A DNA stretch of 64,000 nt from an uncultured delta proteobacterium (GCA_963743305.1 CAVUPH010000013.1:128001-192000); one strand, 5' to 3'; counted from the stretch's first letter, positions 6,143-56,082 are shown. Made by a program: numbers and translations. The notes: generated from the sequence alone by a model not told the origin.

Positions 6143-6727
6143 TTAACCTTTTAATATATATTTAAAAATAGATTTGAGGTGATTTTCCAGAGGGGCAGGA
6201 CCCTTGACCGCTTTCATGTGCATGAGTGCCCCATGCCAACTATAAACCAGAAAATAGGCCGCCTCCCGCACCTCCAGGCCCTTTGATAAATCTCCGGATT
6301 CCTGTGCTTCGGCCAGCACGTCAGCGTATAAATCCACCATAGCTTCCAGCCCTTGCCTGAGCTTCTCCCTGAAAGCCGGGCTTAAGTCCCCCATTTCCTG
6401 GGCCAGGTTGCCTATCGGACAGCCATAAGCAAAAGCTTTCGATTTGAAGAATTGAATAAACCAGCCGAGAAAATTCCTGACCCGGTCCAACGGCGGAACA
6501 GCGCGGTCCCCGAGGGCCTCTTTGGCTAGCTTTGAATAAAATTGCATAAAATAATCGATTACTTGAATGCCAAAATCTTCCTTATTCTTGAAATAATTAT
6601 AAAATGATCCTTTGGGCACTCCCGCCGCACGCAGCACTTCCTGAACGCCGGTATGGTTGAACCCTTTGAGGTGGATGATCTCGGCCCCGCACTCTAAAAT
6701 TCTGGTTTTGGTATCTTCCTTCATCAT
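6143..6727 (-). CDS. TetR family regulator (NemR/YxaF-like)
   Basis: HTH AGVPKGSFYNYFKNKE; GCPIGNLAQEM. Confidence 0.9.
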   Translation of the reverse strand: MMKEDTKTRILECGAEIIHLKGFNHTGVQEVLRAAGVPKGSFYNYFKNKEDFGIQVIDYFMQFYSKLAKEALGDRAVPPLDRVRNFLGWFIQFFKSKAFAYGCPIGNLAQEMGDLSPAFREKLRQGLEAMVDLYADVLAEAQESGDLSKGLEVREAAYFLVYSWHGALMHMKAVKGPAPLENHLKSIFKYILKG

Positions 6728-6760
6728 CGGTTATGGCTTTTTCTATTTTAGCTTGACATA

Positions 6761-6789
6761 ATAATAGACCGGTCGTCTCAAGGTGTCAA
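6761..6789 (-). promoter_or_regulatory. Sigma70 promoter of the TetR operon with an overlapping NemR-like operator
   Basis: TTGACA-17-TATTAT on the minus strand; quasi-palindrome TAGACCGGTCGTCT in the spacer. Confidence 0.7.
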
Positions 6790-7040
6790 TTAGATTTATT
6801 CCGGGTGGATGTGCCTGCCTCTGAATTTAAGGCCTCCCTTTCCTTCCGTTTATCACTCGGGTTCTCTGGGATTTGAAGGCGGTGCAACCTGAAAGAACCC
6901 GGGTAGTGGGTAGTCCGCCCCATGATCGATCCCGGCTACAACCCGAACTCCTTCTTACTGGTCACCGGCAGCAAGGAATGCCTGAAAATTCTGGAAGGTT
7001 AGGTCTAAGAATGGTAGATTAACCCGGAATTGGGACTCCG

Positions 7041-7261
7041 TGGCCGTCGGGTCTCGGCGATAGGGGTTCCTCCCACTTCGGGGGACTTTTCAGGTTCTCC
7101 CCCGGCCCCCGGGTTATTAAATCTTTCCGGAGGCCGGGTCCGCCTTGATGGCGCCAAAATTCTCTGAGATGGGGACTGCTTTAAATAGAATTTGTAAGAT
7201 CGGCTCGGATTCGAATTCCGGAGAACCTTTGGAAAACCCTTTCGCCGAGACCCGACGGCCA
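7041..7261. repeat. Element bounded by ~30-bp inverted repeats
   Basis: TGGCCGTCGGGTCTCGGCGA (7041-7060) is the exact reverse complement of 7242-7261; imperfect pairing continues inward. Confidence 0.7.
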
Positions 7262-7313
7262 TACCAGATAGGGGGGTCACCCACCCCAAGGGGCGAAGCG
7301 TCAAAAAGAATTA

Positions 7314-7919
7314 TTAAGCCCGGGTGATTACGAATTCCCCATAATCGTCTCCCACTTCAATCCCTTTGGTCTGGACGGACTTGAAGGTGTTGAGGCCGGT
7401 TTTTCCGGTGGGATCGAAGGGGCCGCCATAAGCCAGGTCCATAAAAGCGGCGGATACTCCCTGGATCATGTAAGCCGTGGGCCTGCCGGCTTTACCATAC
7501 AGGACCACGTCGCTTTCATAATAATCATAAGCCCGGATTACCATTCTTTCGTTGGGCACCAGTTCGGCGACCTCGGATTTGGCCCACCCCCAGGCGGTGA
7601 AGACGGCAAAAGCCCCGTGCAGCACATCCTCCGGGGCCTGCTCGATCATCGGGCCCACGACCTGATTCCAGATGTCCGAGGTGATGATCCCATAGCCGGT
7701 GAAATAACCGCACTCGTGGGCGCAGTTGACCAGGAGGGTTTCGGCCGTTTCGATCAGGTCTTCCGGCACCGAATTGACGATGCGCCGGGCAAAGCCGTTC
7801 CAAAATTCGGCCGGCAGTTGTTGCACATATACCCCAAAGGCCGGGATCATCCCTTCCTGATCTCCCAGTACCGTTACTTTCGACATCTCGGCGATGATTT
7901 TCTTTCTATCAATGGCCAT
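7314..7919 (-). CDS. Divergent V4R (4-vinyl reductase/Bet3-like) fold protein
   Basis: AWGWA, MIQGVSAAF and QTKGIEVGDDYGEF resemble V4R GWG, G-x-x-x-G and ExxCxxxGDxxCxF; AGGAGG RBS. Confidence 0.55.
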   Translation of the reverse strand: MAIDRKKIIAEMSKVTVLGDQEGMIPAFGVYVQQLPAEFWNGFARRIVNSVPEDLIETAETLLVNCAHECGYFTGYGIITSDIWNQVVGPMIEQAPEDVLHGAFAVFTAWGWAKSEVAELVPNERMVIRAYDYYESDVVLYGKAGRPTAYMIQGVSAAFMDLAYGGPFDPTGKTGLNTFKSVQTKGIEVGDDYGEFVITRA

Positions 7920-7929
7920 GATTTCCTCC

Positions 7930-8466
7930 TTATCGTACTACGGCTTTGAAAACGGATTTTTCATCCCCGCAAACCAGACTCTTGATCTCCTTGGCTTGGA
8001 AACTCCGGGGGGGTTTGTTGTTGGTCAGATCGGCTACGGCGGCGACAAACCCGGTCGTGAAAAAATTAACCGGTTGATCATAGCTGCCCCATTTTTTCAA
8101 CCAGCCTTCATCCAGATGGCTGTACTCCATTTCCGCCGTGACCGCGTATTTTCCGATGGCGCTGAATTTGATGATTCCCATGCCGGAGATTTTCCAATAT
8201 TCCTCCGCAACGGCGACCTTCTCGGCGATAGTTTGGATGTTTCGGGCCTGATAATAGCGGTTCAGGACATCATAAAAAACATCCTCCGCATTCTCCACCA
8301 GATGCCGAACCCCTTCAAATTCGGTGGCGTCCAGGGCCAACTGGACATAGAGCGTGGAATAATGATGGCAATGAAGCACCGTGCAGTCCCCGTTCAGGGA
8401 ATGCCGGTTCTTCACCGGATCAAAGGTGTGTTCAATTTCAAATTCGGTCTTTTTTTCAATGGCCAT
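7930..8466 (-). CDS. Divergent V4R fold protein with LHCHHY motif
   Basis: SGMG, FTTGFVAA, EIKSLVCGDEKSVF; GGAG RBS. Confidence 0.55.
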   Translation of the reverse strand: MAIEKKTEFEIEHTFDPVKNRHSLNGDCTVLHCHHYSTLYVQLALDATEFEGVRHLVENAEDVFYDVLNRYYQARNIQTIAEKVAVAEEYWKISGMGIIKFSAIGKYAVTAEMEYSHLDEGWLKKWGSYDQPVNFFTTGFVAAVADLTNNKPPRSFQAKEIKSLVCGDEKSVFKAVVR

Positions 8467-8484
8467 GTTCTTTCTCCCTTTCCT

Positions 8485-8673
8485 TTACAATTTTATGTCC
8501 TTACCTGTGATTTCCTTGAAGACCTTTTCCATCTTGCTCAGATTCTCCGGGCTGTCCGGGGCCGCTCCGGCTTTGTCGGAACTCATCCCGGACTTCATGG
8601 CCAGACGCATCTGGGCCTGCAAGCCCCCGTGGTCCTTGGCCAAACTAAACGCTTTCACAAGCTTGGCTCCCAT
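8485..8673 (-). CDS. Small helical hypothetical protein (62 aa)
   Basis: AAGGAGG RBS; tightly packed between the MCP and V4R genes; MRLAMKSG...PDSPEN. Confidence 0.75.
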   Translation of the reverse strand: MGAKLVKAFSLAKDHGGLQAQMRLAMKSGMSSDKAGAAPDSPENLSKMEKVFKEITGKDIKL

Positions 8674-8695
8674 AATGTGTAACCCTCCTTAGCTT

Positions 8696-9769
8696 TTATT
8701 TACTTCTTTCTGATACTAATCGTAACATTGGGCCGGATTGTACCGGGATGACTGTTTTTATCTGATCTGGAAAAATCTCTTCTCCGGTTTCGTAGGTCGT
8801 CTGGCCGGCCATGCTCTTCAGCGAAAAAATCCAGTCCTTCATTTGTCCGGTCTGGGTATTCATCTCTTCAGCGGCGCTGGCCAGCTCTTCGGTCTGGGCC
8901 GCCGTCTGTTGGATAACCCGATTGACTTCATTTACTCCCCTATTGACCTGTTCAAGGCCCTGGGATTGTTCCAGGGAGGCAGCGGCGATTTCAGTTACAA
9001 AGGTATTCACTTTGTCGGTGTTGTCGCTCACTTTGGAGAATTCATCGATGGTAACGATCGCGTCATCCATGGCCTCGTTGATTTTTCGACTGATATCCTC
9101 GATCTGGCCGGTGGTTTTTTTGGCCGCGTCGGCCGCCCGCAAGGCTAAGTTGCGGACTTCATCGGCCACCACGGCAAAGCCGGCCCCGGCCTCACCCGCC
9201 CGGGCGGCTTCTACTGCCGCGTTCAGGGCCAGCAGATTGGTTTGAAAGGCGATTTCATCAATTGTTTTAACGATTTTTTGAGTATCGAGACTGGCCTCGC
9301 TCACCTGCCCTATGGCTGCCGCCATGTTTTGCATGGAATTGGAACAGGAATCGGTCGTGTTTTTATTTTCCAAGGACAGGATTTTGGCTTGTTGGGCATG
9401 TTCCGCATTTTGTTTGGTCATGGAGGAAATTTCCTCCAGGGAGGAAGAGGTTTCTTCAAGAGCGGCCGCCATTTCCGAGGCCCCGCTGGCCAGAGATTGG
9501 CTGGAGACCGACACCTCGTGGGAAGCCAGGGTCACTTGATCGACGGCCTCATTAAGACCCTGGATTAGTCCGCCGAGATCCCTGGCCAGGGAACGCCAAA
9601 TCCACAGGCTGAGCCCCACCAGAGCGGCCGTTTCCACAAAAAGAAAGACCCCAAACAGCCCTGTTGACGTTTCTCCGAAAACCCGATATCCAAGGAATCC
9701 GACACCAACCAGTTGCAGGACCAGGAATCCCAACCCGACCAAAAGACGTTTTTGAATTGATAAATTCAT
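8696..9769 (-). CDS. Methyl-accepting chemotaxis protein lacking a ligand-binding domain
   Basis: Hairpin tip [34 protein letters not shown]; methylation helices [10 protein letters not shown] and [10 protein letters not shown]; two TM helices joined by a ~9-aa loop. Confidence 0.92.
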
Positions 9770-9920
9770 AAGGAACGGTCTCCCAATTGAACCAAAGTTA
9801 AAGGGCACTTCAATTCTTAAGGGGTTGATGAATCGAATGCCTTTCTAGGACAGAATGAATTACTACTTGAAATACTTTTCTTATTTCATAGGCAATTCAT
9901 TCTTTATGGTGTTAAAGGTC

Positions 9921-9947
9921 TTATCGGCAAAAAGCAGTCGGGCTTGA
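9921..9947 (-). promoter_or_regulatory. Sigma28 (FliA) promoter for the MCP-V4R operon
   Basis: TCAA-N15-GCCGATAA on the minus strand (consensus TAAA-N15-GCCGATAA). Confidence 0.75.
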
Positions 9948-10213
9948 ATAGTATCGGAAAATCCCGAGGGATTTCTTTGGGGAGGGACCCATTGTTTTTT
10001 CGGACCGGTGCCGGTTTTAGCCTGTTACCCGAAGCGGGAAAGAAGGGAAAAGTGGGGTGCGGCCTGTAAGAGAGGAGTTGGAAAGGATGAGGGGATGGTC
10101 AGCGGGGTAAGTGTTTATCCTCCCCGGAGGCATTTCAACCCAAATATCGGGACCATCCGGGGTGGAATCGGAGTGAAGGGGCGGTTCGTGCCGCTAATAT
10201 CAGGGGTCCCGCT

Positions 10214-10498
10214 TTAAAGACTGTTGATACGCGGCGGGTCGATCTCCTTCAGAACCTGAATCCCTTTCGTCCTCAGGGTCTCGAGGGCCTTGGCTGTAGT
10301 GTCGGGCGCTACGCCCTTGCTCAGACCTTCGATGACGACAACATTGTAGCCGTTGGCGGCAGCATCGACGGCGGTGGCCAGGACGCGGTAATCAGTGGCC
10401 GGTTCATACACCACCAGCTTCTTGATGCCCGCTGCTTTGAGGATGGAGTCCACCTCGGTCTTGGCCCCCCCCGTCATCCTGGAAACCTGAGTAGCTGG
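10214..10498 (-). pseudogene. C-terminal remnant of a nicotinamidase/isochorismatase
   Basis: SYSGFQDDG, then a frameshift in a G8 run, then EPATDYRV in place of GLATDYCV; no N-terminal half. Confidence 0.65.
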
Positions 10499-10541
10499 TG
10501 AATATCGGGTTCTGTCCTTGTTCTTCCTCCTTGTTTTTATT

Positions 10542-10775
10542 TTAAAACCATGATTTGGCGCGATAGGAACGATAGGCTTCACCGAAACGGGACTCCAAAT
10601 CCCGCTCCTCCAGTCTCCGCCAGAAGATAATACTGCCTATTCCTAGGAATCCGGGGATTAGGCTGAGGGTTGCTCCGTGGTAAAGACTCCAACCGAAGAT
10701 CCAAAGCTCGTAGCTGTTCCGAATCACCAATCCAGCCAGGAAGAGGCCCAGGAGTAACGAAAAGTCAATTCTCAT
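10542..10775 (-). pseudogene. Internally deleted isoprenylcysteine/phospholipid methyltransferase-family membrane protein
   Basis: C-terminal LEERDLESRFGEAYRSYR motif retained; only 77 aa and the RHPxY segment is missing. Confidence 0.6.
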
Positions 10776-15668: not shown

Positions 15669-16880
15669 TTACCCGCTGGTTTGTGCGGCCCAAGAAGGGG
15701 GTGATCCCGGTGGAAAAGATTCTTTCCTAACCGCGGAGCCCGCGGTTTTTAAGACCTCTGCGCTTAATCTCGGTTCAGCCATCCGAACAATGCGAATGGC
15801 CCGGCGCCGCTCTACGGGAAAATATAAAATAAAGCTGGCGCCTTGTCCTGGTTCGGATTCAACTTCGATGCGGCCTCCGTGAAGGGCCAGGATTCGTTTG
15901 ACCGTCGCCAGATCGATTCCGGCCCCATTGTCCTTGGTGCTGAAAAACGGGTTAAAGATAAAGGGCAGGTCCCTCTTCAGGATCCCGATCCCGTTGTCGG
16001 TTACCCTGACCCAGTGATGCCGGCCGTCCGATCCGCTCGTAAAGGTGAGCTCCCCGAATTCTTCCAGGGCCTCAATGGCATTTTCAATCAAAATCATAAA
16101 GGCCCTCACCGAAAGATTTCTATCCACCCGCAGAGAAATTTCCGCAAGATCCTTATTGACGGCGATCGTTTTGCTTTTCAGCGGGTAGGTAAATAACCGG
16201 AGGGCCTCCTCGATGAGCTCTTCCAGGGGTTCATTGGTGAAAGAGGGCTTCGGCAGCGTGGCAAAGGAATCGGTTTTTTTCACCAGCCGTTCTATTTTTT
16301 GCAGGTCGCTTAAAATGTACCGGTAATACCGCTCGTTGTCTTCGTTTCGCTCGCAGGCGGCATGGAGCTTCTTGCAGTAGCCGCCGATACCGGCCAGGGG
16401 ATTCCGAAGTTCATGGGCCACTCCCCCGGCGATTTGGATCAGATCTTCATAATGGCCATCCAGGAGGATTTTTTCGAGTTGCTTCTCCTGGTCCATATTC
16501 TGGATGCAGATGAAAATCAGGGCATGCCCCCGGGCGGGTTCAGACATGGCCTGCATATTGATGAAGGCGAAAAAACGGGTCTGGTCCTTTCGCTGGAGCA
16601 TCAGCTCGCCCTCATAGGGACAATTCTTTTGGGCCAGGTCCATCAAATTGGAAAATAGATAGGTCACATCCTCCGGTGTAAATAAGAGGGAAAGCATTTC
16701 CCCCTCCATCTCGTCCGGGGTAAACCCGAAAAGATTTTCCACTACCGGACTGGTGAAACAGATGCGACCGCTCAGGTCGGTTACAATAACCGCCTGTTTG
16801 AGGCAGGCCAGAATGCTTTCCAGCATTTCCCAAGAGTCACAATACGTTAGCGGCCAGGCCAAGTTGGTATTTTTATTCAT
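15669..16880 (-). CDS. Cytoplasmic PAS sensor histidine kinase
   Basis: PAS region, AHELRNPL, DNGIGI, FNPFFSTK, variant G2 box GAGIDL. Confidence 0.9.
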   Translation of the reverse strand: MNKNTNLAWPLTYCDSWEMLESILACLKQAVIVTDLSGRICFTSPVVENLFGFTPDEMEGEMLSLLFTPEDVTYLFSNLMDLAQKNCPYEGELMLQRKDQTRFFAFINMQAMSEPARGHALIFICIQNMDQEKQLEKILLDGHYEDLIQIAGGVAHELRNPLAGIGGYCKKLHAACERNEDNERYYRYILSDLQKIERLVKKTDSFATLPKPSFTNEPLEELIEEALRLFTYPLKSKTIAVNKDLAEISLRVDRNLSVRAFMILIENAIEALEEFGELTFTSGSDGRHHWVRVTDNGIGILKRDLPFIFNPFFSTKDNGAGIDLATVKRILALHGGRIEVESEPGQGASFILYFPVERRRAIRIVRMAEPRLSAEVLKTAGSAVRKESFPPGSPPSWAAQTSG

Positions 16881-18064: not shown

Positions 18065-18841
18065 TCAGGTCAGCTTGGCCCTTAATTTTGAACGGACCTG
18101 CGAATGAATTTGAGATACCCGTCCTTCGGAACAACCCAGAATGTGGCCGATCTCACTTCCGGAAAGTTCTTCGTAATAGTAGAGGGAAAGGAAGGTCTGC
18201 TCCCGCTGGGTGAGGCGATCAATGGCCTGGGCCAGGTGTTGTTTTAGATCCAGCAGAATGACCTGGAAGGACGGATCTTGTCTTTCATCCGCCGGTAAGG
18301 CCTCCAGCATCTGGTCGGAAGGATCACTGTCGGAGGAGTGCGGGGTCATTTTCAGGTTTTGAGCCGAAAGCCCATAGGCCTCCTTGACCAGCTTGTAAAA
18401 AAGATCCAGGGTTTTGCCGAGCGCCTGGGCCACTTCTTCGTCTTCCACCGGATAGCCTTTGGCTTGCTCCAACTCCCGCACCGTATTTTCCAGAAGCATT
18501 TTTTTGTGTCGGACGGATCGCGGGACCCAGTCCATGGCCCGCAGTTCGTCCAACATGGCTCCGCGGATGCGGTATTCCGCGTAGGTGGAAAAATTAACTT
18601 TTTTGTCCGGATCAAATTTTTGCAGGGCATCCATCAAACCGATCATCCCGACACTGATTAAGTCCTCTAGCGCAATATGATCCGGCAACCGCCTGACCAG
18701 TCGCTGGGCCACAAATTTTACCATAGGGCTGTGCTTGAGGATCAAGGCTTCCCGCTCGCTAAGGGAAATAGGGATGGCCTCGCAGACCGGCGGGGGCGTC
18801 TTCCCTTCTAATTTGTTGTATTCGCTTACGGTGGCTTTCAC
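18065..18841 (-). CDS. fliA: FliA/WhiG-family sigma factor (sigma28), orphan
   Basis: EDLISVGMIGL, YAEYRIRGAMLDELRAMDWVPRSVR, LYYYEEL, RVSQIHS; probable GTG start after GGAGG (ORF extends to 18877). Confidence 0.88.
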   Translation of the reverse strand: MKATVSEYNKLEGKTPPPVCEAIPISLSEREALILKHSPMVKFVAQRLVRRLPDHIALEDLISVGMIGLMDALQKFDPDKKVNFSTYAEYRIRGAMLDELRAMDWVPRSVRHKKMLLENTVRELEQAKGYPVEDEEVAQALGKTLDLFYKLVKEAYGLSAQNLKMTPHSSDSDPSDQMLEALPADERQDPSFQVILLDLKQHLAQAIDRLTQREQTFLSLYYYEELSGSEIGHILGCSEGRVSQIHSQVRSKLRAKLT

Positions 18842-18877
18842 GTGTCCCTCCTGTTGCGTTCTCTGGCCAGGCAGCAT

Positions 18878-20092
18878 TTATACCCCCGGGCTGGTTTCCA
18901 AAACGGCAGTTTGGTTGATCAATCCCTGATCGAAAGGGGTGATCTCCGGATAATGTGGAAGTAGACCTGACCGTTCATCCCTTGGCGGTCCAAGGATCCT
19001 CCCCCCATCCGAGTGATCGGGAAAGCCGGTTGTTTGACCTTCTAATTTTTCCCAGGCTAGGCCGAAGTCCTTCCCCTTGAACAGGATCAAACAGGCTTCC
19101 ACCACCCGGGGATCAAAAAGCACGCCTGCTTGGGCCTCAATTTCCTCCAGGGCCTTGTCGATTCCCAAGGCCGGTCGGTAAGGCCGGTGGGAGGCGATGG
19201 CCTCCACCACGTCGGCCACCGCCAGTACTCTGGCCTCCAGGATAATCTCCGCTTTCGACAAGCCTTGAGGATATCCGCTACCGTCGATTCTTTCGTGGTG
19301 CTGATGCACGATATCGGCTATCGGCCAGGGGAAATCAATGGGCTCCAGCAACTGGTACCCCAATTGAGCATGGGATTTGACGATGGCGAATTCGATGGCT
19401 GATATTTTCCCCGGCTTGCTGAGGATCTCGGCGGGAATAAATATCTTGCCGACATCATGAACCAATCCGGCCATGCGGATTCCTTCGGTCTGAGGACGGG
19501 GAAGCCCCAGCTCGCCGGCAATCGCTGCGGCCAGCTTAGACACTCTTTGCTGGTGACCGGCGGTATAAGGATCCCTTATTTCTACGGTTGAGGCCACCAG
19601 ATTGATGGTCCCGGTGATGGATTTTTGCAGGTCATTTACGGTGGTCAGCAGGTCTTGGGTTCGTTCTCTGACCTTGGTTTCAAGGTTCTGAAGGTAGCGC
19701 CGGTTTTCAATCTCCAATTCGCGGCGGCGGAGGGCGTTCGACACCTGAATCATCAGTTGATTCAAACTAAAGGGTTTAATCAGGTATCCATAGGCGCCGA
19801 TAACCAAGGCTTCCTCCGCAGTCCGCAGGTCATCTATCCCGCTCTCCATGATAATGACCGTATCGGGATACCGATGGGCGACAAATTTAATCAATTCGAG
19901 ACCGGATTCCCCGGGCAGATTGATATCGCTGAGGATCAAGGAAAAGATCTGGCGCTGCAGGAGAGCCCGCGCTTCTTTGGCATTTCTGGCCAACTGGCAG
20001 ATATAACCATGCGAACGGAGCTCTTTAGCAATGAGTCGGAGGATATTTTCCTCGTCCTCTACGACCAAGATTGGATGTGAATCTATTTTCAT
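18878..20092 (-). CDS. REC-HD-GYP c-di-GMP phosphodiesterase (RpfG-like)
   Basis: Receiver with SDINLPG; RDPYTAGH, HDVGK, HHERIDGSGYP. Confidence 0.92.
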   Translation of the reverse strand: MKIDSHPILVVEDEENILRLIAKELRSHGYICQLARNAKEARALLQRQIFSLILSDINLPGESGLELIKFVAHRYPDTVIIMESGIDDLRTAEEALVIGAYGYLIKPFSLNQLMIQVSNALRRRELEIENRRYLQNLETKVRERTQDLLTTVNDLQKSITGTINLVASTVEIRDPYTAGHQQRVSKLAAAIAGELGLPRPQTEGIRMAGLVHDVGKIFIPAEILSKPGKISAIEFAIVKSHAQLGYQLLEPIDFPWPIADIVHQHHERIDGSGYPQGLSKAEIILEARVLAVADVVEAIASHRPYRPALGIDKALEEIEAQAGVLFDPRVVEACLILFKGKDFGLAWEKLEGQTTGFPDHSDGGRILGPPRDERSGLLPHYPEITPFDQGLINQTAVLETSPGV

Positions 20093-20139
20093 TTCATCTC
20101 CCGAAAGGTTGCATCTTAGACTTGTTAATGGAATTATAC

Positions 20140-20154
20140 TCAAGAACCATGCCA
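20140..20154 (-). promoter_or_regulatory. Sigma54 -24/-12 promoter
   Basis: TGGCATGGTTCTTGA versus consensus TGGCAC-N5-TTGC, about 50 bp upstream of the HD-GYP gene. Confidence 0.7.
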
Positions 20155-20278: not shown

Positions 20279-21610
20279 TTAATTATTTTGATTTCTTATT
20301 TTTTTCAGTTTCCGATAGAGCGTCGCCCGGGAGATCCCCAGGGCTTTGGCCGTCTGGGCGACTTCTCCTTGATGCTCCTTCAGGGTTGATAAGATGGCCG
20401 AGGCCTTGTTCCCCTGGTAGTCTTCAGGAGGGGTCCCGAGACTGGAGATAGGTTTGGTGCCCAATAAGCCGGGAAAATGCTCCTCGGCCAGGGGGGCGCC
20501 CCGTGATAGCAAACAGGCCCTTTCCAGGATATTTCGCAATTCCCTGACATTCCCGGGCCAGGGGTATTGTTGCAACAGCTTGATTATTTTCGTCGGCACC
20601 CCGATCTCGGATTTTGCCATTGAAGCCAGGAGGTGGGAGACCAGTCCCTCCATATCTTCCAGCCGTCTCCGTAAAGGAGGAATTTGAATGGGAAACACCT
20701 GTATGCGGAAAAACAGGTCCTTGCGGAATCGCTGTTGGGCAATCTCTTCTTCCAGATTTTTATTGGTCGCGCACAACAGCCGGAAGTCACTGTGGCGGGA
20801 TTTCACATCTCCAACCCGACGGAACCATTTATCTTCAATGACCTTAAGGAATTGGGCCTGAACCTCCAAGTCCATATCACCGATTTCGTCCAAGAAAAGG
20901 GTGCCCCGATCGGCAATCTCGATCAGTCCCTGCCGGTTCTGGATGGCCGAGGTAAAAGCCCCGCGAACAACGCCGAAAAGTTCGCTGGCCATCAGTGCTC
21001 CTTTCAGACCGGAACAATTCACTTCAACCAAAGGTTCGGATCCGCGCTGGCCGTGTTGGTGTATCCATTGGGCCAGCAATCCCTTTCCGGTTCCGGTTTC
21101 TCCCAAAATTAATATCGTGGAGTCATTCTCAGCCGCCAGAGAGGCGAGTTCTTTGACCAAGGCCATGCCCGGACTCGGCCCCCAAAAAAAATTCTCCCGG
21201 TAGTTCGATCGTTCTTTGGCCGTCCGCTGCCGGCGCAACGCGCCCCATTCCAGAGCCTTTTGGAGAAAAATCTGCAGGCCGGCCATTTCTACCGGCTTGG
21301 GCAGAAAATTATCCGCACCCCGGCGCATGGCTTCCACGGCTTTCGGGATGTCGCCTTCCCCGCTGATGACAATAATGGGTAGCCCGGGATAATTTTCCCG
21401 GAGTTCCGGTATCCAATCCAGCCCATTGCCGTCGGGAAGGTTTAAATCGAGCAAGAGGGCATCAAAGCGCCGGTTCAGGATGGTTTCCCGAGCTTCTTTC
21501 AAGGAGGAGGCTTCAGAGACGATAAAACCGGCTTCAGCCAGGTATTTATAAAACAATACCCGGATTGCCGGATCATCATCGACCACTAGAATTTGAGGAT
21601 TCATCCTCAT
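20279..21610 (-). CDS. NtrC-family sigma54-dependent response regulator
   Basis: REC, GETGTGK, SELFG..GAFTSA, FLDEIG, WPGNVREL, Fis HTH LGISRATLYRKL. Confidence 0.93.
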   Translation of the reverse strand: MRMNPQILVVDDDPAIRVLFYKYLAEAGFIVSEASSLKEARETILNRRFDALLLDLNLPDGNGLDWIPELRENYPGLPIIVISGEGDIPKAVEAMRRGADNFLPKPVEMAGLQIFLQKALEWGALRRQRTAKERSNYRENFFWGPSPGMALVKELASLAAENDSTILILGETGTGKGLLAQWIHQHGQRGSEPLVEVNCSGLKGALMASELFGVVRGAFTSAIQNRQGLIEIADRGTLFLDEIGDMDLEVQAQFLKVIEDKWFRRVGDVKSRHSDFRLLCATNKNLEEEIAQQRFRKDLFFRIQVFPIQIPPLRRRLEDMEGLVSHLLASMAKSEIGVPTKIIKLLQQYPWPGNVRELRNILERACLLSRGAPLAEEHFPGLLGTKPISSLGTPPEDYQGNKASAILSTLKEHQGEVAQTAKALGISRATLYRKLKKIRNQNN

Positions 21611-21718: not shown

Positions 21719-22726
21719 TCATTCGAATTTGACCGCCCCTTTCTTGAACACGCGCAGACAAGCATCCACAACCCCGGGGTCGTAGAGTACGCCCCGGTTT
21801 CTGAGAATCTCATCCAGCGCGAGATCGGTTCCCCTGGCCGGGCGATAAGGCCGGTGGGAGGCCATGGCTTCCACTACGTCGGCAACACACAGGATCCGGG
21901 CCTCGAGAAGAATATCCTCTCCCGAAAGCCCCTGGGGATAGCCGCTGCCGTTCATTTTCTCGTGATGCTCTAATACTATTCGGGCGATCGGCCACGGAAA
22001 TTCAATATCGGCTATGATAGCATAGCCGGCTTGGGGGTGCGTCTTAATAAGCTCGAATTCATTTTCCGTCAACTCGTTCGGCTTGCTCAGTATCTGCGCG
22101 GGCACGGATATTTTTCCCAGATCATGTATCATTCCGGCCAGGCGAATCCCTTCCAGGCGATCTTTCGTCAGGTTCATTTCCGTGGCCAGGGCAGCGGCAA
22201 GATCGGCCACCCGCCGCTGATGGCCCGCGGTGTAGGGGTCCCGGGCTTCAACCGTCCGGGTCATCGCCTGTATGATCCCCTCCAGGGCCTTTTTCAGTTT
22301 GGCGGTTCGCTCCTCCACCATCTGCTCAAGCTCCTGGCGGTACATGCGGTTGGCGATCTCCAACTTTCGCCGCCGCAAGACATTCCGGATATTAATGAGG
22401 AGCTCGTGAAGATTAAAAGGCTTTAAAACATACCCCCAGGCCCCCAATTGGATGGCGGCGTCGGCGATTTTAGAATCATCCACCGCCGTCACGATGATGA
22501 CCGCTGTGTCCCCATACTCCGTCGCGATATGCCTGGCCAAATCAATGCCGGATTCCCCCGGCATGTTCACATCGCAGAGCGCCAGATTGAAGGTTTGTTC
22601 ACCCAGGCATTTTCGGGCTTCCGCCGCATTAGCGGCCAGGGTACAGGCATGACCGTTCGTCGAGAGTGTTCGGTCCAGCAAGCGACGCATCTGTTCTTCG
22701 TCGTCAACGATCAAGATACTTGCCAT
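21719..22726 (-). CDS. REC-HD-GYP c-di-GMP phosphodiesterase, paralog of 18878-20092
   Basis: CDVNMPG, RDPYTAGH, HDLGK, HHEKMNGSGYP. Confidence 0.92.
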   Translation of the reverse strand: MASILIVDDEEQMRRLLDRTLSTNGHACTLAANAAEARKCLGEQTFNLALCDVNMPGESGIDLARHIATEYGDTAVIIVTAVDDSKIADAAIQLGAWGYVLKPFNLHELLINIRNVLRRRKLEIANRMYRQELEQMVEERTAKLKKALEGIIQAMTRTVEARDPYTAGHQRRVADLAAALATEMNLTKDRLEGIRLAGMIHDLGKISVPAQILSKPNELTENEFELIKTHPQAGYAIIADIEFPWPIARIVLEHHEKMNGSGYPQGLSGEDILLEARILCVADVVEAMASHRPYRPARGTDLALDEILRNRGVLYDPGVVDACLRVFKKGAVKFE

Positions 22727-52453: not shown

Positions 52454-53764
52454 TTAAATTATACCCAACAGTCTTCCTAAAAGTCCAATGGCTCCAGCCG
52501 AAATGATTACCGTGATCATCCCCACGCGGAGCCATTGCAGGGCGACGAAGGAAGCAAGGCCTATGACTATTCCAAACCAATTGACTTCACCAGGTGCCGG
52601 AAAGAGGACCTGGATTCCGAACCAGACAGCCAGATTGAGAACCACCCCGACGACCGCGGCGGTGATGGCCGAGAGGACGGCGGATAGTCTTTTATTTCCT
52701 CTAAATTTCTCTATGTAGGGGCCTCCTAACATGATGAATAAGAAAGAGGGGAGGAAGGTAAAATACGTGGCGATCAGGGAGCCGATGAGCCCGGCCCAGA
52801 TTGGATTTAAAGCTCCCGGATTATTCCATCCCGCCATGAAACCGATAAACTGGACCACCATGATTAAAGGGCCGGGAGTGGTTTCAGCCAACCCCAGCCC
52901 GTCAATCATCTGGGGGCCGGTCAACCAGGCAAATTGCTCCACCCCGGCCTGGGCGATGTAGGCTAAGACCGCGTACGCACCGCCAAAGGTTAGAAAAGCG
53001 GCCTTGGTAAAGAACAATCCCTCGGTGACAAAGACAGGATTTGGAATTAAGATCAGCCCTCCCATGGGGATAATCCAGAGCGTCAGAAACACCAGAATTA
53101 GAATAATACTCCGTTTCATGGAGGGTTCGATATGGCAAGGGAGGTCTATCTCACAGTATTGGACATAAGCCTCCTCAGAATCGCCATCCTTTTCCTTAAT
53201 GACGTCGAATTTCTTAGGAAGGTAAAGCCTTCCTAAGAATCCTGTCAACCCGGCCCCCAGGACGATGACAGGGAAGGGGACCTTAAAGAAGAAAATCGTG
53301 ATGAAGGCGACAGCCGCCAGGGCTATCAGGGTCTCATTTTTTAAGGCCTTCTGGGCAATCTTAATGACGGCGGCGGCCACAATGGCCAGGACGGCCGGTT
53401 TGAGGCCGCTGAAGACCGCGGCGATCCAGGAGATGTTCCCATAAACGCCATAAACCAGGCTGAGGCCGAAAAGGATAAAGATGGAGGGGATGACAAAAAA
53501 ACTTCCTGCCACCACACCCCCCGGTATTTTATGCAGCAGCCACCCTATATAGATGGCCAACTGCTTGGCTTCCGGGCCCGGCAGCAGCATGCAGTAATTG
53601 AGGGCCTGGAGGAACCGGGTGTTGGAGATCCAATTCCTTTTTTCCACCAGTTCCTGGTGCATGATGGCAATTTGACCGGTCGGCCCGCCGAAACTGATGA
53701 AGCCCAGCTTCAGCCAGAATTTGAAGGCTTCCCGAAAGGAAGGGTGGGGCGTCGGTTCGATCAC
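52454..53764 (-). CDS. chrA: Long-chain chromate efflux transporter
   Basis: SFGGPTGQIA, LPGPEA, TFGGAY, TPGP. Confidence 0.92.
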   Translation of the reverse strand: MIEPTPHPSFREAFKFWLKLGFISFGGPTGQIAIMHQELVEKRNWISNTRFLQALNYCMLLPGPEAKQLAIYIGWLLHKIPGGVVAGSFFVIPSIFILFGLSLVYGVYGNISWIAAVFSGLKPAVLAIVAAAVIKIAQKALKNETLIALAAVAFITIFFFKVPFPVIVLGAGLTGFLGRLYLPKKFDVIKEKDGDSEEAYVQYCEIDLPCHIEPSMKRSIILILVFLTLWIIPMGGLILIPNPVFVTEGLFFTKAAFLTFGGAYAVLAYIAQAGVEQFAWLTGPQMIDGLGLAETTPGPLIMVVQFIGFMAGWNNPGALNPIWAGLIGSLIATYFTFLPSFLFIMLGGPYIEKFRGNKRLSAVLSAITAAVVGVVLNLAVWFGIQVLFPAPGEVNWFGIVIGLASFVALQWLRVGMITVIISAGAIGLLGRLLGII

Positions 53765-53827
53765 CTTATTTCCCAGTAACTTTCAGATCATCAAAGTGAC
53801 TTCGGGCATCGGCCTTGGTCCAGAGCC

Positions 53828-55087
53828 CTATTTTGTTGATGTTTTGGGGACCGGCATATCCCGCCCCCAAACGGCGAAACCCACGGTGCCGATGATCCCA
53901 AAGACGAAGGCCATGATGAAATTCACCTCCGGGCTGATTTGCCATAGAAACGCGCCTCCCAGGGCGGCGGCGGATACAAAGACGTCTCGGATCAGGTAGT
54001 AGAGCCCGAACATGCCCGCCTGGCAGCTTTTGGGGGAGAGATCCATGATCAGGGATTTGCGGGTGGGCTCGCCGAACTCCTTGAGGCCCCGGAGGATAAA
54101 GGCCAGGACCAGCCATTCGAAGGAGCGGCTATAAAGTAAGACCAAGGGGAAAAAAGTGAAAAATACAAAGGTCGTGAGAACAAAAGGCTTCTTGTGGCTC
54201 CGATCCGCCAAGTAGGCCACCGGGATATAGACCAATACCGCCGTGGCCATCTCGATCGTCGTCAGGAGGCCGAACTGAAGGGCCGACACCGGATCGGCGA
54301 TGGTCTTCAGACACCAGACTACCACGAAGGCGTAGGGGATCTGCTCGCAGAAGCGGATCAGGATGTCGGTAATCAGGAGCCCTTTCATGGCCGGGTTCAT
54401 CAGCCGCAGTAGTCTCAGCGGATTTTTTTCCGGGGAAAGTGTGCAGGCCTCCCCCGAGGATTTCGTGGCGGACCGGTCGTCGGCGAGCAGTCTCTGTTGC
54501 AGGACCAAGGCTACCCCGGCCAGGACCAGCGCCGCCTCAAAGGCGAGACGAACCCCGTCACGTTCCCCCCAGAGGCTAATAAAGACTCCGCCGACCAATG
54601 GCCCCAGGGCCATGGGGACGCGGCGCACCAGCGAGTGCATGGTCACCCCCATGGTCCGTTTGTTTTGGGGCAGCACCCGGTACATCAGGCTCATGGTGGC
54701 CGGCAGCGAGATGGCCGACCAGGAGATGAAAAGCACCGCTCCGGCCAACACCGCCTGCCAGGCGGGGATCACGATCACCAGGGAAAAGCCCGCCATGGCC
54801 ACCAAGTTGAAAACCAGCAGGGAACGCTTGGTTCCGATGCGGTCGGCGAGGTAGCCGCCGGGAAAGCTGTAAAGGGCCGAGAGCAGGTTATCCATGGCCT
54901 GGAGCAGCCCGATGGCCAGCACGCCGCCCCCCAGGGCCATGAGGTAGATGGGCAGAAAGCGCTCGCCCATCCGCTCGCCCATCCCCACCAGCACCACCAT
55001 GGCCAGTAATCCGACGGTGCTGCGCTGCAGGGCGAGGAATCCGGTGATCCGGGCGGTGCGGGTGGAGGCGGGGTCCGGAGACGGCAT
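53828..55087 (-). CDS. MFS transporter
   Basis: GYLADRIGTKR motif A; about 12 TM helices. Confidence 0.88.
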   Translation of the reverse strand: MPSPDPASTRTARITGFLALQRSTVGLLAMVVLVGMGERMGERFLPIYLMALGGGVLAIGLLQAMDNLLSALYSFPGGYLADRIGTKRSLLVFNLVAMAGFSLVIVIPAWQAVLAGAVLFISWSAISLPATMSLMYRVLPQNKRTMGVTMHSLVRRVPMALGPLVGGVFISLWGERDGVRLAFEAALVLAGVALVLQQRLLADDRSATKSSGEACTLSPEKNPLRLLRLMNPAMKGLLITDILIRFCEQIPYAFVVVWCLKTIADPVSALQFGLLTTIEMATAVLVYIPVAYLADRSHKKPFVLTTFVFFTFFPLVLLYSRSFEWLVLAFILRGLKEFGEPTRKSLIMDLSPKSCQAGMFGLYYLIRDVFVSAAALGGAFLWQISPEVNFIMAFVFGIIGTVGFAVWGRDMPVPKTSTK

Positions 55088-55090
55088 GGA

Positions 55091-56062
55091 TTATCCTTTG
55101 CGTCTTTGGAAATAAGTATACAAATTTTCATATAAACGGATGCCCTCCTCCAGGCGTTGATCGTCGTCCGGATGAGACGAGACCAGTCCGGTCAATAAGG
55201 CTCGGAAGCCGTCCGTTTCACGACGGTTGAATTTATCGTCCTTTAAGTCGATGTCGTGGACGATCTCGGCCAGCGGTACCAGACCCCGGTCCTGGAATTG
55301 GCATCGCCCGATCATCACCTCAAAAGTACACCGGTCCCCTTCGTGGGTGAATTCTCCGTCGAACAGGTCGAAACGAAGTTCCCCGGGCTGCGGGGTATAA
55401 TGGGGGCCGCGGACGAACTTGAAGACCGCTTTTGGGTCGATAAAGCGCCTGATCAACCATCCGCAGGCCAGACGATCCACAAAGAGGTTTTTCCGGGTCA
55501 CCCAGGTTTTTCCCTGCAGCCGGTCGACCTGCTCCAGACTGCCAGGCGCCGTCAAGGGCTCACCGGCAACTTGGGTTTCCAAGTTCAGGAGCAGGGCTTC
55601 CGCGGTTCCCCGTTCGGGCGTTTGAAAGAAGTCGATGGCGAAGACCTCGTCCAATCGGCGCCGCAGCCGGGAGACCCGGGCCGGTCCCTTCAGCGCCGGG
55701 TCCCTCGGGTCGTCCGGCCCGGAAGCCCGGGCCGTGAACAACTCCCGGGCCTCCCGGATAATGTTTTCGTAATCGAACCGGCGGGCGCCTTGAAAAAGGG
55801 CGATGATCTGGTCGTCAGCCAGGCCTTCCAGAAACCGCGCCTCCGAGATGGACCCCTCCCCGCCGCCCTCGACGATCTCTTTGAGTATCCAGTTCAAGTC
55901 TTCCCGTGAGTGTTCGGAAGGGGGTAAGGCATAGACCGATTGTTTTAGCGCCACGGCGCCCACCTGCTGTAACCGGCGCCAGATTTTCACCCGTAGGGCG
56001 TTGGGCTTGGGGGGAAGTTGATGGATTAAAAGCAACCACTTTTTCGAGTCATGGGGGTTCAA
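55091..56062 (-). CDS. chrB: Chromate resistance regulator ChrB
   Basis: WLLLIHQLP..RVKIWRRL, WVTR..VDRLACGWLIRRFID, FTHEGDRCTFE; TTG start after CAGGAG. Confidence 0.88.
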   Translation of the reverse strand: MNPHDSKKWLLLIHQLPPKPNALRVKIWRRLQQVGAVALKQSVYALPPSEHSREDLNWILKEIVEGGGEGSISEARFLEGLADDQIIALFQGARRFDYENIIREARELFTARASGPDDPRDPALKGPARVSRLRRRLDEVFAIDFFQTPERGTAEALLLNLETQVAGEPLTAPGSLEQVDRLQGKTWVTRKNLFVDRLACGWLIRRFIDPKAVFKFVRGPHYTPQPGELRFDLFDGEFTHEGDRCTFEVMIGRCQFQDRGLVPLAEIVHDIDLKDDKFNRRETDGFRALLTGLVSSHPDDDQRLEEGIRLYENLYTYFQRRKG

Positions 56063-56082
56063 TAGAGACTCCTGATAACAAG

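Follow-up and report, generated by a model that had tools for sequence, protein, structure and literature searches.

A chemoreceptor without a sensor domain beside a conserved three-protein V4R-type cassette, a candidate cytoplasmic sensory input

Introduction

In anaerobes, many chemoreceptors lack a recognisable sensor, and there has long been a gap in knowledge of the signals they respond to. The nearest described arrangement is CetA/CetB of Campylobacter jejuni, a bipartite energy-taxis receptor (PMC2628428), and a system of the same type, CetA2/CetB2, is reported from Magnetospirillum gryphiswaldense (PMC12442639). CetA is a chemoreceptor (MCP) with a transmembrane helical hairpin and without a periplasmic sensor. 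A second, soluble protein serves as cytoplasmic sensor and is co-transcribed with CetA, and the two proteins have been proposed to act as one receptor reporting an intracellular state. The locus considered here lies in a 64,000-nucleotide stretch from an uncultured delta proteobacterium (GCA_963743305.1 CAVUPH010000013.1:128001-192000; hereafter the window). It encodes an MCP with the same kind of hairpin and likewise no periplasmic sensor, followed by an adjacent trio of genes in the same predicted operon, and for this MCP and trio we propose the same role. The two arrangements differ in that CetB is a single PAS-FAD protein whereas the candidate sensor of the window would be a three-protein V4R complex with no PAS; CetA carries a HAMP domain, the presumed receiver of the PAS signal, whereas the window MCP has none; and the window locus carries a sigma-28-like motif upstream.

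The two larger trio proteins, V4RA and V4RB, find their best full-length structural matches in the A domains of XylR, DmpR, MopR and PoxR (5frw, 5kbh, 6iy8; TM 0.65-0.77), which are dimeric ligand-sensing modules of NtrC-type activators. Unlike these domains, which are fused to AAA+/DNA-binding output, V4RA and V4RB stand alone; they are predicted to associate as a heteromeric pair to which a protein of 62 aa adds a third subunit, their set of conserved residues is different, and no sequence-level profile match joins them to the XylR/DmpR-type domains. The same fold is found, at lower similarity (TM 0.45-0.57), in the Bet3-family TRAPP subunits of eukaryotes and archaea and in archaeal MJ1460 (2oso/2osd), and the V4R-Bet3 link itself has been argued before (PMC2253512). 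Bet3-family proteins form heterodimers of paralogues (bet3-trs31 and bet3-trs33, by the titles of the PDB entries); unlike them, the trio loci have no GTPase or trafficking context. Stand-alone H-NOX gas sensors are small proteins with a related fold, encoded beside signalling proteins that include MCPs; the structural likeness is weak and confined to V4RB (TM 0.37-0.42), and H-NOX systems are not known to include a desulfurase. Finally, many related loci resemble the SufS-SufE and CsdA-CsdE pairs in having a type II-like desulfurase beside, and sometimes fused to, a small protein with one conserved Cys, although that small protein, unlike the SufS and CsdA partners, matches no SufE/CsdE family. 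Our literature search found no paper on this candidate three-protein V4R complex, and neither Pfam nor NCBIfam has a family for any of the three trio proteins.

Results

A predicted four-gene operon with a sensor-less chemoreceptor

Four genes lie in tandem on the minus strand, in the order MCP, s62, V4RA and V4RB, with gaps of 22, 18 and 10 nt by ORF coordinates (Table 1). The three downstream genes are each preceded by a ribosome-binding site (AGGAGG, GGGAGA and AGGAGG for s62, V4RA and V4RB, respectively, 6-9 nt before the ATGs), and the MCP start that we adopt (ATG 9769) has GGGAGA 9 nt before it; an alternative GTG start at 9808 has no such site. No terminator-like site was found on the minus strand between 6700 and 10250. 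Neither the terminator scan nor a sigma-70 scan gave more matches than a shuffled control. Rfam, run over the whole window, returned 4 tRNAs only and nothing in the 5' leader. On this layout the four genes are probably one operon.

Table 1. Features of the locus, with positions counted from the first letter of the window
Feature	Position	Strand	Basis
MCP, 357 aa	8696..9769	-	ORF; MCPsignal match
s62, 62 aa	8485..8673	-	ORF; without Pfam/NCBIfam family
V4RA, 178 aa	7930..8466	-	ORF; AF2 and Foldseek fold
V4RB, 201 aa	7314..7919	-	ORF; AF2 and Foldseek fold
Sigma-28 (FliA)-type promoter-like motif, TCAA-N15-GCCGATAA	9921..9947	-	only exact match in the 64-kb window
FliA/WhiG sigma factor gene (context)	18068..18877	-	TIGR02479, 235.3 bits (cut-off 189.6)

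The MCP has a full signalling domain (MCPsignal E 3.9e-39, profile positions 7-171 of 172), which is its sole Pfam domain, and its residues 78-336 (370-aa reading) match positions 261-519 of the 553 in the Tar model NF011622 as a single unbroken alignment. A crude hydropathy scan of the 357-aa form places transmembrane segments at 9-27 and 39-57 with a loop of 11 residues between them, only ~8 residues separate the second segment from the Tar-aligned stretch, and a Pfam search detected no HAMP at E<=1. By these scans the protein is a signalling domain on a transmembrane hairpin anchor that lacks both HAMP and a sensor in the periplasm, and its cytoplasmic part would span residues ~58-357. The C-terminal 80 residues of the window MCP and of 21 MCPs linked to the trio elsewhere were compared for a shared docking motif, and none was seen. 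Several of these MCPs end in ordinary aromatic C-terminal peptides.

An earlier note on this DNA had described four co-oriented genes with 10-22 bp gaps, clear ribosome-binding sites on the three downstream genes, and a receptor with a complete signalling domain and a loop of ~9 aa between its helices, and all of this is borne out by the coordinates, the sites and the domain match given above, the loop being slightly longer. It had also named a sigma-28 promoter as the driver of the operon, for which the outcome is mixed. The sequence TCAAGCCCGACTGCTTTTTGCCGATAA at 9947..9921 (-) falls within the 444-nt intergenic region upstream of the MCP, ~150 nt before ATG 9769. In a sigma-28 promoter a TAAA-like -35 element precedes the -10 element GCCGATAA by 15 nt, and the -35 element here matches that consensus at 3 of its 4 bases. 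Searched as TMAA-N15-GCCGATAA with zero mismatches, the motif upstream of the MCP is the single match in 64 kb; when one mismatch or fewer is allowed there are 7 matches vs. 0.62 expected (0/100 shuffles reach 7), and GCCGATAA alone occurs 7 times, mostly inside genes, vs. 2.33 expected (1/100 shuffles reaches 7). The FliA/WhiG gene of the window would be the candidate reader, with transcription expected to begin close to 9913 (-). The exact match upstream of the operon stands, but the motif is not conserved in relatives: within the 350 nt upstream of 13 gene starts at 12 loci we found only two weak partial matches, TAAAGTT..ACCGATAC at L002 and GCCGATAC, without a -35 element, at L003.

Two distant paralogues with a V4R fold

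The AF2 model of V4RA (pLDDT 92.3) has its best Foldseek matches in the PDB among the PoxR, MopR and DmpR sensor domains (E 8.5e-9, TM 0.74-0.77), followed by Bet3/TRAPP and the V4R protein MJ1460. The V4RB model (pLDDT 89.3) returns the same match list, headed by MopR (E 3.9e-7, TM 0.66-0.68), and Foldseek gives a probability of 1.00 for both proteins against PoxR/MopR/DmpR, Bet3 and MJ1460, at an identity to the PoxR/MopR/DmpR domains of only 10-15%. The predicted models thus confirm the V4R fold that the earlier note had assigned to both ORFs, but the V4R profile itself (PF02830, cut-off 31 bits) matches neither window protein at E<=1. Relatives come closer: 9/31 of V4RA carry sub-threshold matches (best E 1.6e-4), as does 1/47 of V4RB (E 0.068), and some V4RA relatives in JGI records are named 'predicted hydrocarbon binding protein'. 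A V4RB profile search also finds more distant two-domain relatives of ~400 aa, and 4 of the 13 that were scanned reach the PF02830 cut-off (P0214, 51.1 bits; P0201, 38.3; P0193, 35.1; P0270, 31.9); on these profile scores, sequence homology to recognised V4R proteins runs through the two-domain intermediates. Thiothrix lacustris has relatives of this distant two-domain kind only. Profile searches of PDB sequences gave a chance match only for V4RA (E 0.62) and none for V4RB. Aligned profile to profile with hhalign, V4RB is a distant paralogue of V4RA (94% probability, E 1.1e-7).

Conservation is high. Across 46 relatives, drawn from many phyla, identity to V4RB is 53-79%, the mean column identity is 71%, and C70 of V4RB is invariant (47/47 sequences); in V4RA the invariant residues are R21, H22 and H32-C33-H34-H35, the His and Cys positions being kept in 31/31 sequences. 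Two positions of the window V4RB, F73 and S181, are H in 45/47 and C in 46/47 family members, so either these residues are not cofactor ligands or the site is altered in the window copy. Scored over 46 loci, C189 of V4RB and the desulfurase/p100 pair described below were both present at 24 and both absent at 9, with 8 and 5 discordant, counts on related rows from which we draw no conclusion.

The trio as a unit

A search of genome contigs yielded 80 related loci from many phyla. The order s62-V4RA-V4RB and a single strand are kept throughout them; s62, directly upstream of V4RA, is present at 76/80 and V4RB at 78/80. V4RA and V4RB are fused at L011 and L012 and in 7 proteins of 387-405 aa, and a search for V4RB joined to output domains returned V4RA-V4RB fusions only. 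We take the trio to be an old, widely transferred cassette. The ESM Atlas gave no usable match for s62. A longer s62-containing protein, one 352-aa record with a primase C-terminal domain, was set aside as a gene-call artefact or irrelevant.

When s62 was modelled as the partner of V4RA and V4RB, the complex scored an ipSAE of 0.91 in each of 3 runs, vs. 0.01 for the best of 3 controls, and replacing V4RB abolished the score. The mark used for such scores is reached by 58/80 solved complexes and 2/110 mismatched pairs, counts that come from single-chain pairs with other alignments and hold only roughly for s62/V4RA/V4RB. At least 94% of contacts agree between the runs, the partner pLDDT is at least 90, and s62 residues 18-34 are modelled against V4RA 42-50 and V4RB 51-65 and 177. 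By these models the three proteins probably form one soluble complex, in line with the earlier note, which had joined the small protein and both V4R proteins in this way; we infer that V4RA and V4RB pair within it as a heterodimer.

Chemotaxis genes recur beside the trio

The trio does have a link to chemotaxis, but an incomplete one. An MCP homologue was found no further than 7 kb from the trio at 27/80 loci and at 53/80 there is none; 21/80 have an MCP on the same strand within 2 kb, and at 11/80 one lies within 300 bp. Three placements occur, across several phyla: directly upstream of the trio, upstream of the desulfurase, and directly downstream. CheA/CheW were found at 7 loci, and at L003, the locus with the closest MCP, MotA-MotB follow directly downstream of the trio. 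On the V4RB tree the MCP-near label is scattered: it needs 15 changes, and well-supported branches force at least 5 of these, so the linkage recurs and does not go back to a single inherited accident. The clade of the window has an MCP at L002-L004, L006-L009 and L011 and desulfurase or p100 at none of L001-L013. Co-occurrence with MCP/che genes elsewhere, the lack of which the earlier note would have counted as a refutation, extends over several phyla, but is not seen at most loci. Its theme of a sensor-less receptor holds for the window MCP and for 17/30 of the MCPs neighbouring the trio, which have no recognised sensor domain, but not for the 12/30 that carry PAS, Cache, CZB or 4HB, and the trio is thus more than a substitute for a missing sensor.

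A cysteine desulfurase and p100 are the commonest neighbours

At 54/80 loci the trio has its commonest neighbours, a cysteine desulfurase of SufS/CsdA type and a protein of 100 aa with a single Cys (p100); counted separately, the desulfurase occurs at 48/80 and p100 at 54/80. L024 and L078 are among the desulfurase-linked loci. The earlier note had not foreseen this partnership, and the window has neither gene. Neither an MCP nor desulfurase/p100 is present at 18/80 loci, 10 of which have <2.5 kb of flank on one side. In the desulfurase alignment the H-C of RxGLHCAP and the PLP lysine are invariant (42/42), and a pattern search recovered HCx in 41/42 ORFs, with none in L063; by these residues the enzyme is catalytically intact. 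Its best model is TIGR01977 (343-367 bits for two unfused copies and 288 for the fused L063, all below the cut-off of 377), and the SufS and CsdA models also match. Desulfurase and p100 are fused at L020, L063, L065 and L069. For p100 we found no SufE/CsdE or other Pfam/NCBIfam family; it falls in unnamed ESM Atlas clusters, and its Atlas structure has a loose likeness (TM ~0.66) to a domain of PAPS-reductase/ferredoxin proteins, which we treat as a lead only. A defence-system reading was rejected, as PADLOC matches nothing in the trio or p100; it matches the desulfurase to SspA and DndA, as it would any cysteine desulfurase.

The desulfurase and p100 partners, taken with the His/Cys-rich invariant residues, point to a sulfur-derived or metal group on the complex, and they speak against the assumption of the earlier note that the V4R pair binds a hydrophobic ligand.

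Discussion

We propose that the trio encodes a conserved cytoplasmic V4R sensor complex, probably loaded with sulfur or metal, which serves as the input to a sensor-less MCP; the step from complex to MCP we infer, and we regard the whole as evenly poised between right and wrong. The operon would then encode a split chemoreceptor. Lacking HAMP as well as a sensor in the periplasm, the MCP alone would be a signalling module only. V4RA and V4RB, as paralogous subunits of XylR/DmpR-type fold, would pair as a heterodimer in a soluble cytoplasmic complex, with the central helix of s62 clamping across both. This complex may carry, or be modified by, a sulfur-derived or metal group, for instance a persulfide, an Fe-S cluster or a metal-thiolate site, and would report an intracellular state (redox, oxygen, or sulfur/cysteine status) and not an external hydrophobic compound. 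In the lineage of the window, where the desulfurase pair is absent from the locus, it may be wired directly to the sensor-less MCP, binding to whose cytoplasmic bundle would bias the control of CheA, and the sigma-28-type promoter would place expression of the receptor with the motility regulon. Several findings weigh against this reading: 53/80 loci have no MCP within 7 kb and 18/80 have neither an MCP nor desulfurase/p100, 12/30 neighbouring MCPs bring their own sensor, the window lacks desulfurase and p100, its V4RB departs from the family at positions 73 and 181, the sigma-28 motif is not conserved in the relatives examined, and the known split receptors receive their signal via HAMP, of which the window MCP has none. 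A broader version is tentative and, in our judgement, somewhat doubtful, namely that desulfurase, p100, s62, V4RA and V4RB, often joined by an MCP as the sixth gene, make up an undescribed, horizontally spread cytoplasmic sensory system in which the desulfurase would load an Fe-S cluster or persulfide onto the s62-clamped V4R complex; the state of the sulfur-based group (redox, O2/NO, sulfur/cysteine) would be read by MCPs without a HAMP relay.

Alternatively, the trio might not be a sensor at all but act together with desulfurase and p100 in sulfur trafficking, in cofactor maturation or as a carrier, the MCPs being co-regulated neighbours or receptors for related substrates such as cysteine. 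This would fit the greater frequency of desulfurase/p100 (54/80 loci vs. 27/80 for an MCP), the enzyme-like conservation of V4RB at 71% mean column identity, the own sensor domains of 12/30 neighbouring MCPs, and the V4R protein BchJ, a presumed tetrapyrrole carrier. We nevertheless consider it unlikely, though with appreciable weight, because the clade of the window keeps the trio beside MCPs without a desulfurase, MCP linkage recurs on the V4RB tree, CheA/CheW and MotAB appear at some loci, the closest solved folds are ligand-sensing domains, and the window MCP has no sensor of its own.

It is less probable still that, like the sensor domains of XylR, DmpR and MopR, the V4R pair recognises a small ligand of hydrophobic or aromatic nature and signals to the MCP without a sulfur-derived cofactor, which was the version of the earlier note. 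The phenol-bound PoxR, MopR and DmpR domains head the structural matches, some JGI relatives bear the title 'predicted hydrocarbon binding protein' and the window locus has no desulfurase; however, the structural similarity comes with an identity of 10-15% only, the invariant residues are His, Cys and charged, the desulfurase of 48/80 loci would be left without a role, and no aromatic-catabolism genes were found among the neighbours examined. Very improbable, finally, is a chance adjacency of a functionally unrelated MCP and trio downstream of a chance promoter match. The 53/80 loci without an MCP within 7 kb, the absence of the sigma-28 motif from relatives, and the 7 copies of GCCGATAA in the window, mostly within genes, would all fit chance, but they are set against gaps of 10-22 nt in which no terminator-like site was found, a same-strand MCP within 2 kb at 21/80 loci in several phyla and three arrangements, and a full spaced motif that is unique in the window and correctly placed between genes.

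Should the sensory reading fail, the five-gene cassette would still be a well-defined, very conserved unknown. As a sensory input, the trio is a testable candidate conserved across at least 12 phyla. If the complex signals to MCPs, split receptors would come in a further kind, next to the PAS-FAD system of CetA/CetB, and the V4R/Bet3 fold would be tied to chemotaxis. If the wider cassette reading is true, chemoreceptors would have a new class of input, and stand-alone bacterial V4R pairs would gain their first assigned function. The desulfurase suggests sensing based on sulfur or metal, which may bear on the way strict anaerobes navigate redox gradients.

Operon architecture and the chemoreceptor

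The four ORFs in 7314-9947 all lie on the minus strand, with intergenic gaps of 22, 18 and 10 nt. AGGAGG, GGGAGA and AGGAGG are placed 6-9 nt 5' of the start codons of s62, V4RA and V4RB, respectively, and GGGAGA precedes the ATG of the methyl-accepting chemotaxis protein (MCP) gene at 9 nt; a GTG at 9808 lengthens the MCP frame, but lacks a ribosome-binding site. Upstream, within a 444-nt intergenic region, lies the sigma-28-type motif TCAAGCCCGACTGCTTTTTGCCGATAA, which alone in the window matches TMAA-N15-GCCGATAA exactly (≤1 mismatch: 7 matches vs. 0.62 expected, 7 reached in 0/100 shuffles; octamer GCCGATAA alone: 7 occurrences vs. 2.33 expected, 7 reached in 1/100 shuffles). The co-oriented genes, short gaps, ribosome-binding sites and promoter motif described in the earlier note are thus all borne out. 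The window also encodes a FliA/WhiG sigma factor (TIGR02479, 235.3 bits, cut-off 189.6), so a candidate sigma factor for reading this motif is present in the organism; its gene is clustered with those of two response-regulator/HD-GYP-type proteins, a sigma-54 activator and a PAS histidine kinase. Flagellar and che structural genes are absent from the window. Across 6700-10250, a simple scan found no terminator-like sites on the minus strand, and sigma-70-like sites did not exceed the frequency seen in shuffled sequence.

In Pfam, MCPsignal is the sole domain of the MCP (E 3.9e-39, profile positions 7-171 of 172), with no HAMP at E≤1, and residues 78-336 of the 370-aa reading align unbroken to positions 261-519 of 553 of the NCBIfam Tar model. 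A hydropathy scan of the 357-aa form predicts two transmembrane (TM) segments, residues 9-27 and 39-57, leaving a loop of 11 residues between them and ~8 residues from TM2 to the signalling bundle. The MCP is a membrane-anchored signalling module with neither a sensor nor a HAMP relay, in agreement with the full signalling domain and tiny inter-TM loop first read from the sequence.

Elsewhere in the window, the 586 nt between V4RB and a TetR-family gene hold only Arg/Pro-rich, overlapping ORFs, none of them convincing, and no Rfam match. A 122-aa ORF that aligns only to the C-terminal part of the isochorismatase domain (positions 95-171 of 175) probably represents a gene that is truncated or has a mis-called start, and ChrB- and ChrA-type chromate-resistance genes lie together with an MFS transporter gene.

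Coordinates of features in the window and in related loci (L-numbered, found with a V4RA relative)
Feature	Locus	Position	Strand	Remark
Sigma-28-type motif	window	9947..9921	-	TCAAGCCCGACTGCTTTTTGCCGATAA
MCP gene	window	9769..8696	-	ORF scan; ATG 9769
s62	window	8673..8485	-	62-aa ORF
V4RA	window	8466..7930	-	178-aa ORF
V4RB	window	7919..7314	-	201-aa ORF
Interval without convincing ORF	window	6728-7313		
Isochorismatase-like ORF	window	10217-10582	-	122 aa
FliA/WhiG gene	window	18068-18877	-	
FliA/WhiG cluster neighbours	window	15672-16880, 18881-20143, 20282-21610, 21722-22726		
ChrB, ChrA, MFS genes	window	52457-56113	-	
MotA-MotB	L003	8375-9930		MCP-s62-V4RA-V4RB-MotA-MotB
V4R and SpoIIE/PP2C genes	L011	4875-6573		
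DUF3034 protein	L036	5767-6747		
DUF3034 protein	L043	5794-6705		
DUF3034 protein	L045	5760-6719		
~290-aa paralogues	L055	4932-6701		
~290-aa paralogues	L070	4026-6720		
~290-aa paralogues	L075	251-2042		
Roadblock/LC7 gene	L077	6557-6967		Polyangia MAG

V4RA and V4RB adopt the V4R fold

Neither Pfam nor NCBIfam recognised a family for s62, V4RA or V4RB, and a sequence-profile search of the PDB found nothing for V4RA or V4RB. AlphaFold2 models of the two larger proteins (pLDDT 92.3, pTM 0.88 for V4RA; pLDDT 89.3, pTM 0.87 for V4RB) had as their top Foldseek matches in the PDB the phenol-sensing domains of PoxR, MopR and DmpR (E 8.5e-9, TM 0.74-0.77 for V4RA; E 3.9e-7, TM 0.65-0.68 for V4RB), followed in second rank by Bet3/TRAPP subunits and the V4R protein MJ1460; weak H-NOX similarity was seen for V4RB only. 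Compared with each other, the two are, judged by their profiles, distant paralogues (hhalign probability 94%, E 1.1e-7). An HMM search with the V4RB profile returned 271 cluster representatives at E≤0.001, of which 187 also pass E≤1e-10; two-domain proteins of ~390-430 aa are numerous among them, and PF02830 was found at E≤0.01 in 10/13 scanned two-domain relatives, reaching its cut-off in four. Because of these structural matches and of the two-domain relatives that reach PF02830, we take the V4R fold proposed for the two larger ORFs as confirmed, though the Pfam V4R profile itself fails to reach V4RA/V4RB proteins; both subunits belong with V4R, XylR-type sensor domains and Bet3.

We found at least 156 V4RA relatives of near-constant length (~178 aa) in the 90%-cluster collection, a few carrying the JGI name 'predicted hydrocarbon binding protein'; R21, H22, H32, C33, H34, H35, D119, G121, W122, K125 and W126 are invariant in an alignment of 31 sequences. 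V4RB shares 53-79% identity with 46 relatives from many phyla (mean column identity 71%). Its C70 is invariant, H73 is present in 45/47 sequences and C181 in 46/47; the V4RB of the window has F73 and S181 in place of these near-universal residues. A further cysteine, C189, is present in 29/47 and missing throughout the desulfurase-less Desulfobacterota clade. Named members among the V4RB-profile matches are all 'hypothetical protein', including those of Thiothrix lacustris and T. litoralis, cultured species whose 451-aa proteins (matches P0172, P0289-P0293) are distant double-V4R relatives and a possible experimental entry point.

The trio is a conserved unit and a predicted complex

We scanned one genome per species (185,579 species), obtained 148 stretches with a V4RA relative and kept the best 80, which are nearly all MAGs and belong to Thermodesulfobacteriota, Planctomycetota, Armatimonadota, Verrucomicrobiota, Ignavibacteriota, Acidobacteriota, Gemmatimonadota, Myxococcota, Bacillota and others. 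Within these best 80 of 148, phmmer against six-frame ORFs detected s62 in 76 and V4RB in 78, and the order s62-V4RA-V4RB on one strand held without exception, so that the gene-neighbourhood survey proposed at the outset shows a trio recurring across phyla. The two V4R genes are fused into one ORF in L011 and L012, and the fusion is also seen in seven proteins of 387-405 aa from a large protein set.

A three-chain prediction that scored s62 as the partner reached 0.91 in 3/3 runs (best of three controls, 0.01), with at least 94% contact agreement and partner pLDDT of at least 90; the score mark is passed by 58/80 solved complexes and 2/110 mismatched pairs, a calibration that is only rough for a three-chain job with custom alignments. 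The modelled s62 contacts V4RA 42-50 and V4RB 51-65 and 177 through residues 18-34, its conserved MRLAMK-G core, and the score was lost when V4RB was swapped out. Contact between V4RA and V4RB is suggested by their fusion in some loci, by their strict side-by-side placement and by the way s62 bridges them. The conserved C-terminal half of s62 (PDSPEN motif) lies outside the part of the interface that is predicted with confidence, and might bind a further partner. We conclude with high confidence that the trio is a V4R-fold complex. The soluble complex envisaged in the earlier note is therefore supported in that s62 is predicted to sit on both proteins; its supply of a signal to the receptor is a proposition we hold to be evenly balanced.

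Chemoreceptors and a cysteine desulfurase recur beside the trio

An MCP lies ≤7 kb from the trio in 27/80 loci, on the same strand ≤2 kb away in 21 and ≤300 bp away in 11, while CheA/CheW are encoded at seven loci, and 11 have histidine kinases or response regulators. Among 30 trio-adjacent MCPs, 17 have no recognised sensor domain (including two fragments and five HAMP-only proteins), one is a poly-HAMP array and 12 carry PAS, dCache, CZB or 4HB. Eight of the 13 loci of the window's clade (L001-L013) have an MCP (L002-L004, L006-L009, L011); the MCP most similar to the window's is that of L003 (E 2e-93), where MotA and MotB directly follow the trio. On a quick maximum-likelihood V4RB tree (79 rows), the label 'same-strand MCP within ~2 kb' takes 15 changes (shuffled mean 20.1), at least five of them forced by well-supported branches, and MCP linkage therefore recurs across the V4RB family. 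The tree intermixes phyla (Hyphomicrobiales bins with Ignavibacteriota; Verrucomicrobiota with Phycisphaerae), which suggests horizontal spread or mis-binned MAG contigs.

When the four genes flanking the trio on either side were clustered, a single cluster dominated (50/80 loci); it resolves into two genes, encoding a ~377-aa class-V aminotransferase and p100, a ~100-aa protein. The former is nearest to TIGR01977, 'cysteine desulfurase family protein' (343-367 bits for two unfused copies, 288 for the fused L063 copy; cut-off 377), with selenocysteine lyase SclA and SufS/CsdA as next-best NCBIfam models; the H-C of RxGLHCAP and the PLP lysine are invariant across 42 aligned desulfurases, and a pattern search found HCx in 41/42 ORFs. 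No family was found for p100, which conserves the EDCFDG cysteine and an FPRPFF..IKGVEG motif; L020, L063, L065 and L069 encode it as a fusion with the desulfurase. By alignment-built HMMs, the desulfurase is present in 48/80 loci and p100 in 54/80, usually directly upstream of s62; both are absent from all 13 loci of the window's clade, and the window holds no homologue of either. MCPs are placed in three ways, MCP-trio, MCP-desulfurase-p100-trio and trio-MCP. MCP and pair occur together in 19 loci of the 80; 18/80 have neither, and 10 of these 18 have <2.5 kb of flank on one side.

Other neighbours were seen in single loci or small groups. Tandem ~290-aa paralogues of no family, in two or three copies, take the place of the desulfurase pair upstream of the trio in L055, L070 and L075; a DUF3034 protein lies between desulfurase/p100 and s62 in L036, L043 and L045, with a CZB-type or sensor-less MCP downstream of the trio. 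In L011, the genes between CheA/MCP and the fused V4RA-V4RB gene encode a SpoIIE/PP2C phosphatase and a stand-alone V4R protein of canonical type (PF02830, 49 bits), and in L077 a Roadblock/LC7 gene is directly upstream of the trio.

Interpretation

The closest functional analogue is CetA/CetB, a bipartite energy-taxis receptor in which CetA is a TM hairpin with HAMP and signalling domain and CetB a soluble PAS protein (PMC2628428); the Magnetospirillum counterpart is reported to sense through FAD (PMC12442639). By analogy, MCP and trio may work like such a receptor; they are not a CetA/CetB member, as two traits that define this family, a HAMP in the MCP and a PAS-FAD partner, are missing. 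Of two papers on V4R proteins, one reports PYP-V4R fusions and the other V4R in ParA and asparaginase conflict systems; a defence-system reading of the cassette was dropped, as the trio and p100 match no PADLOC model. As the earlier note had supposed, we found no description of the cassette in the main text of openly accessible papers. Among the matches listed for V4R with chemotaxis, none was relevant by title or abstract; searches for V4R with cysteine desulfurase and for 4-vinyl reductase with methyl-accepting chemotaxis found none, and those for COG1719 and for chemoreceptor, iron-sulfur cluster, aerotaxis and cysteine desulfurase in combination returned nothing relevant.

The reading we find best supported, at about even confidence, is a split chemoreceptor with the trio complex as the sensory input of the MCP. 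The earlier note's interpretation is partly supported, by the V4R fold, the conserved trio and the recurring MCPs; it did not foresee the desulfurase link. Its own version, in which the trio senses a hydrophobic ligand and sulfur chemistry plays no part, can draw on the phenol-sensor matches and on the desulfurase-free locus of the window; set beside the desulfurase pair of most lineages, we judge it unlikely. The same pair would fit a sulfur-trafficking or maturation module, its MCPs being bystanders or receptors of a related substrate, a possibility that we weigh together with the MCP-bearing, pair-less loci of the window's clade and regard as doubtful. Chance adjacency of MCP and trio would be compatible with loci that have no MCP nearby and is, beside the recurrence of the linkage, very improbable.

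In the split chemoreceptor, the MCP would be the membrane anchor and kinase-control module, and the s62-V4RA-V4RB complex would provide its signal. The complex may carry, or be modified by, a sulfur-derived or metal group, because both large subunits have the fold of ligand-sensing domains, His and Cys are prominent among the invariant residues, and the cassette of most lineages includes a cysteine desulfurase and a small Cys protein. For the window copy, F73 and S181 in V4RB and the desulfurase-free locus speak against such a group. The best-supported picture is of a split chemoreceptor whose basis is a highly conserved V4R cassette, so far uncharacterised, with a cysteine-desulfurase link, and a cofactor-bearing trio would sense conditions inside the cell rather than a hydrophobic compound from outside.
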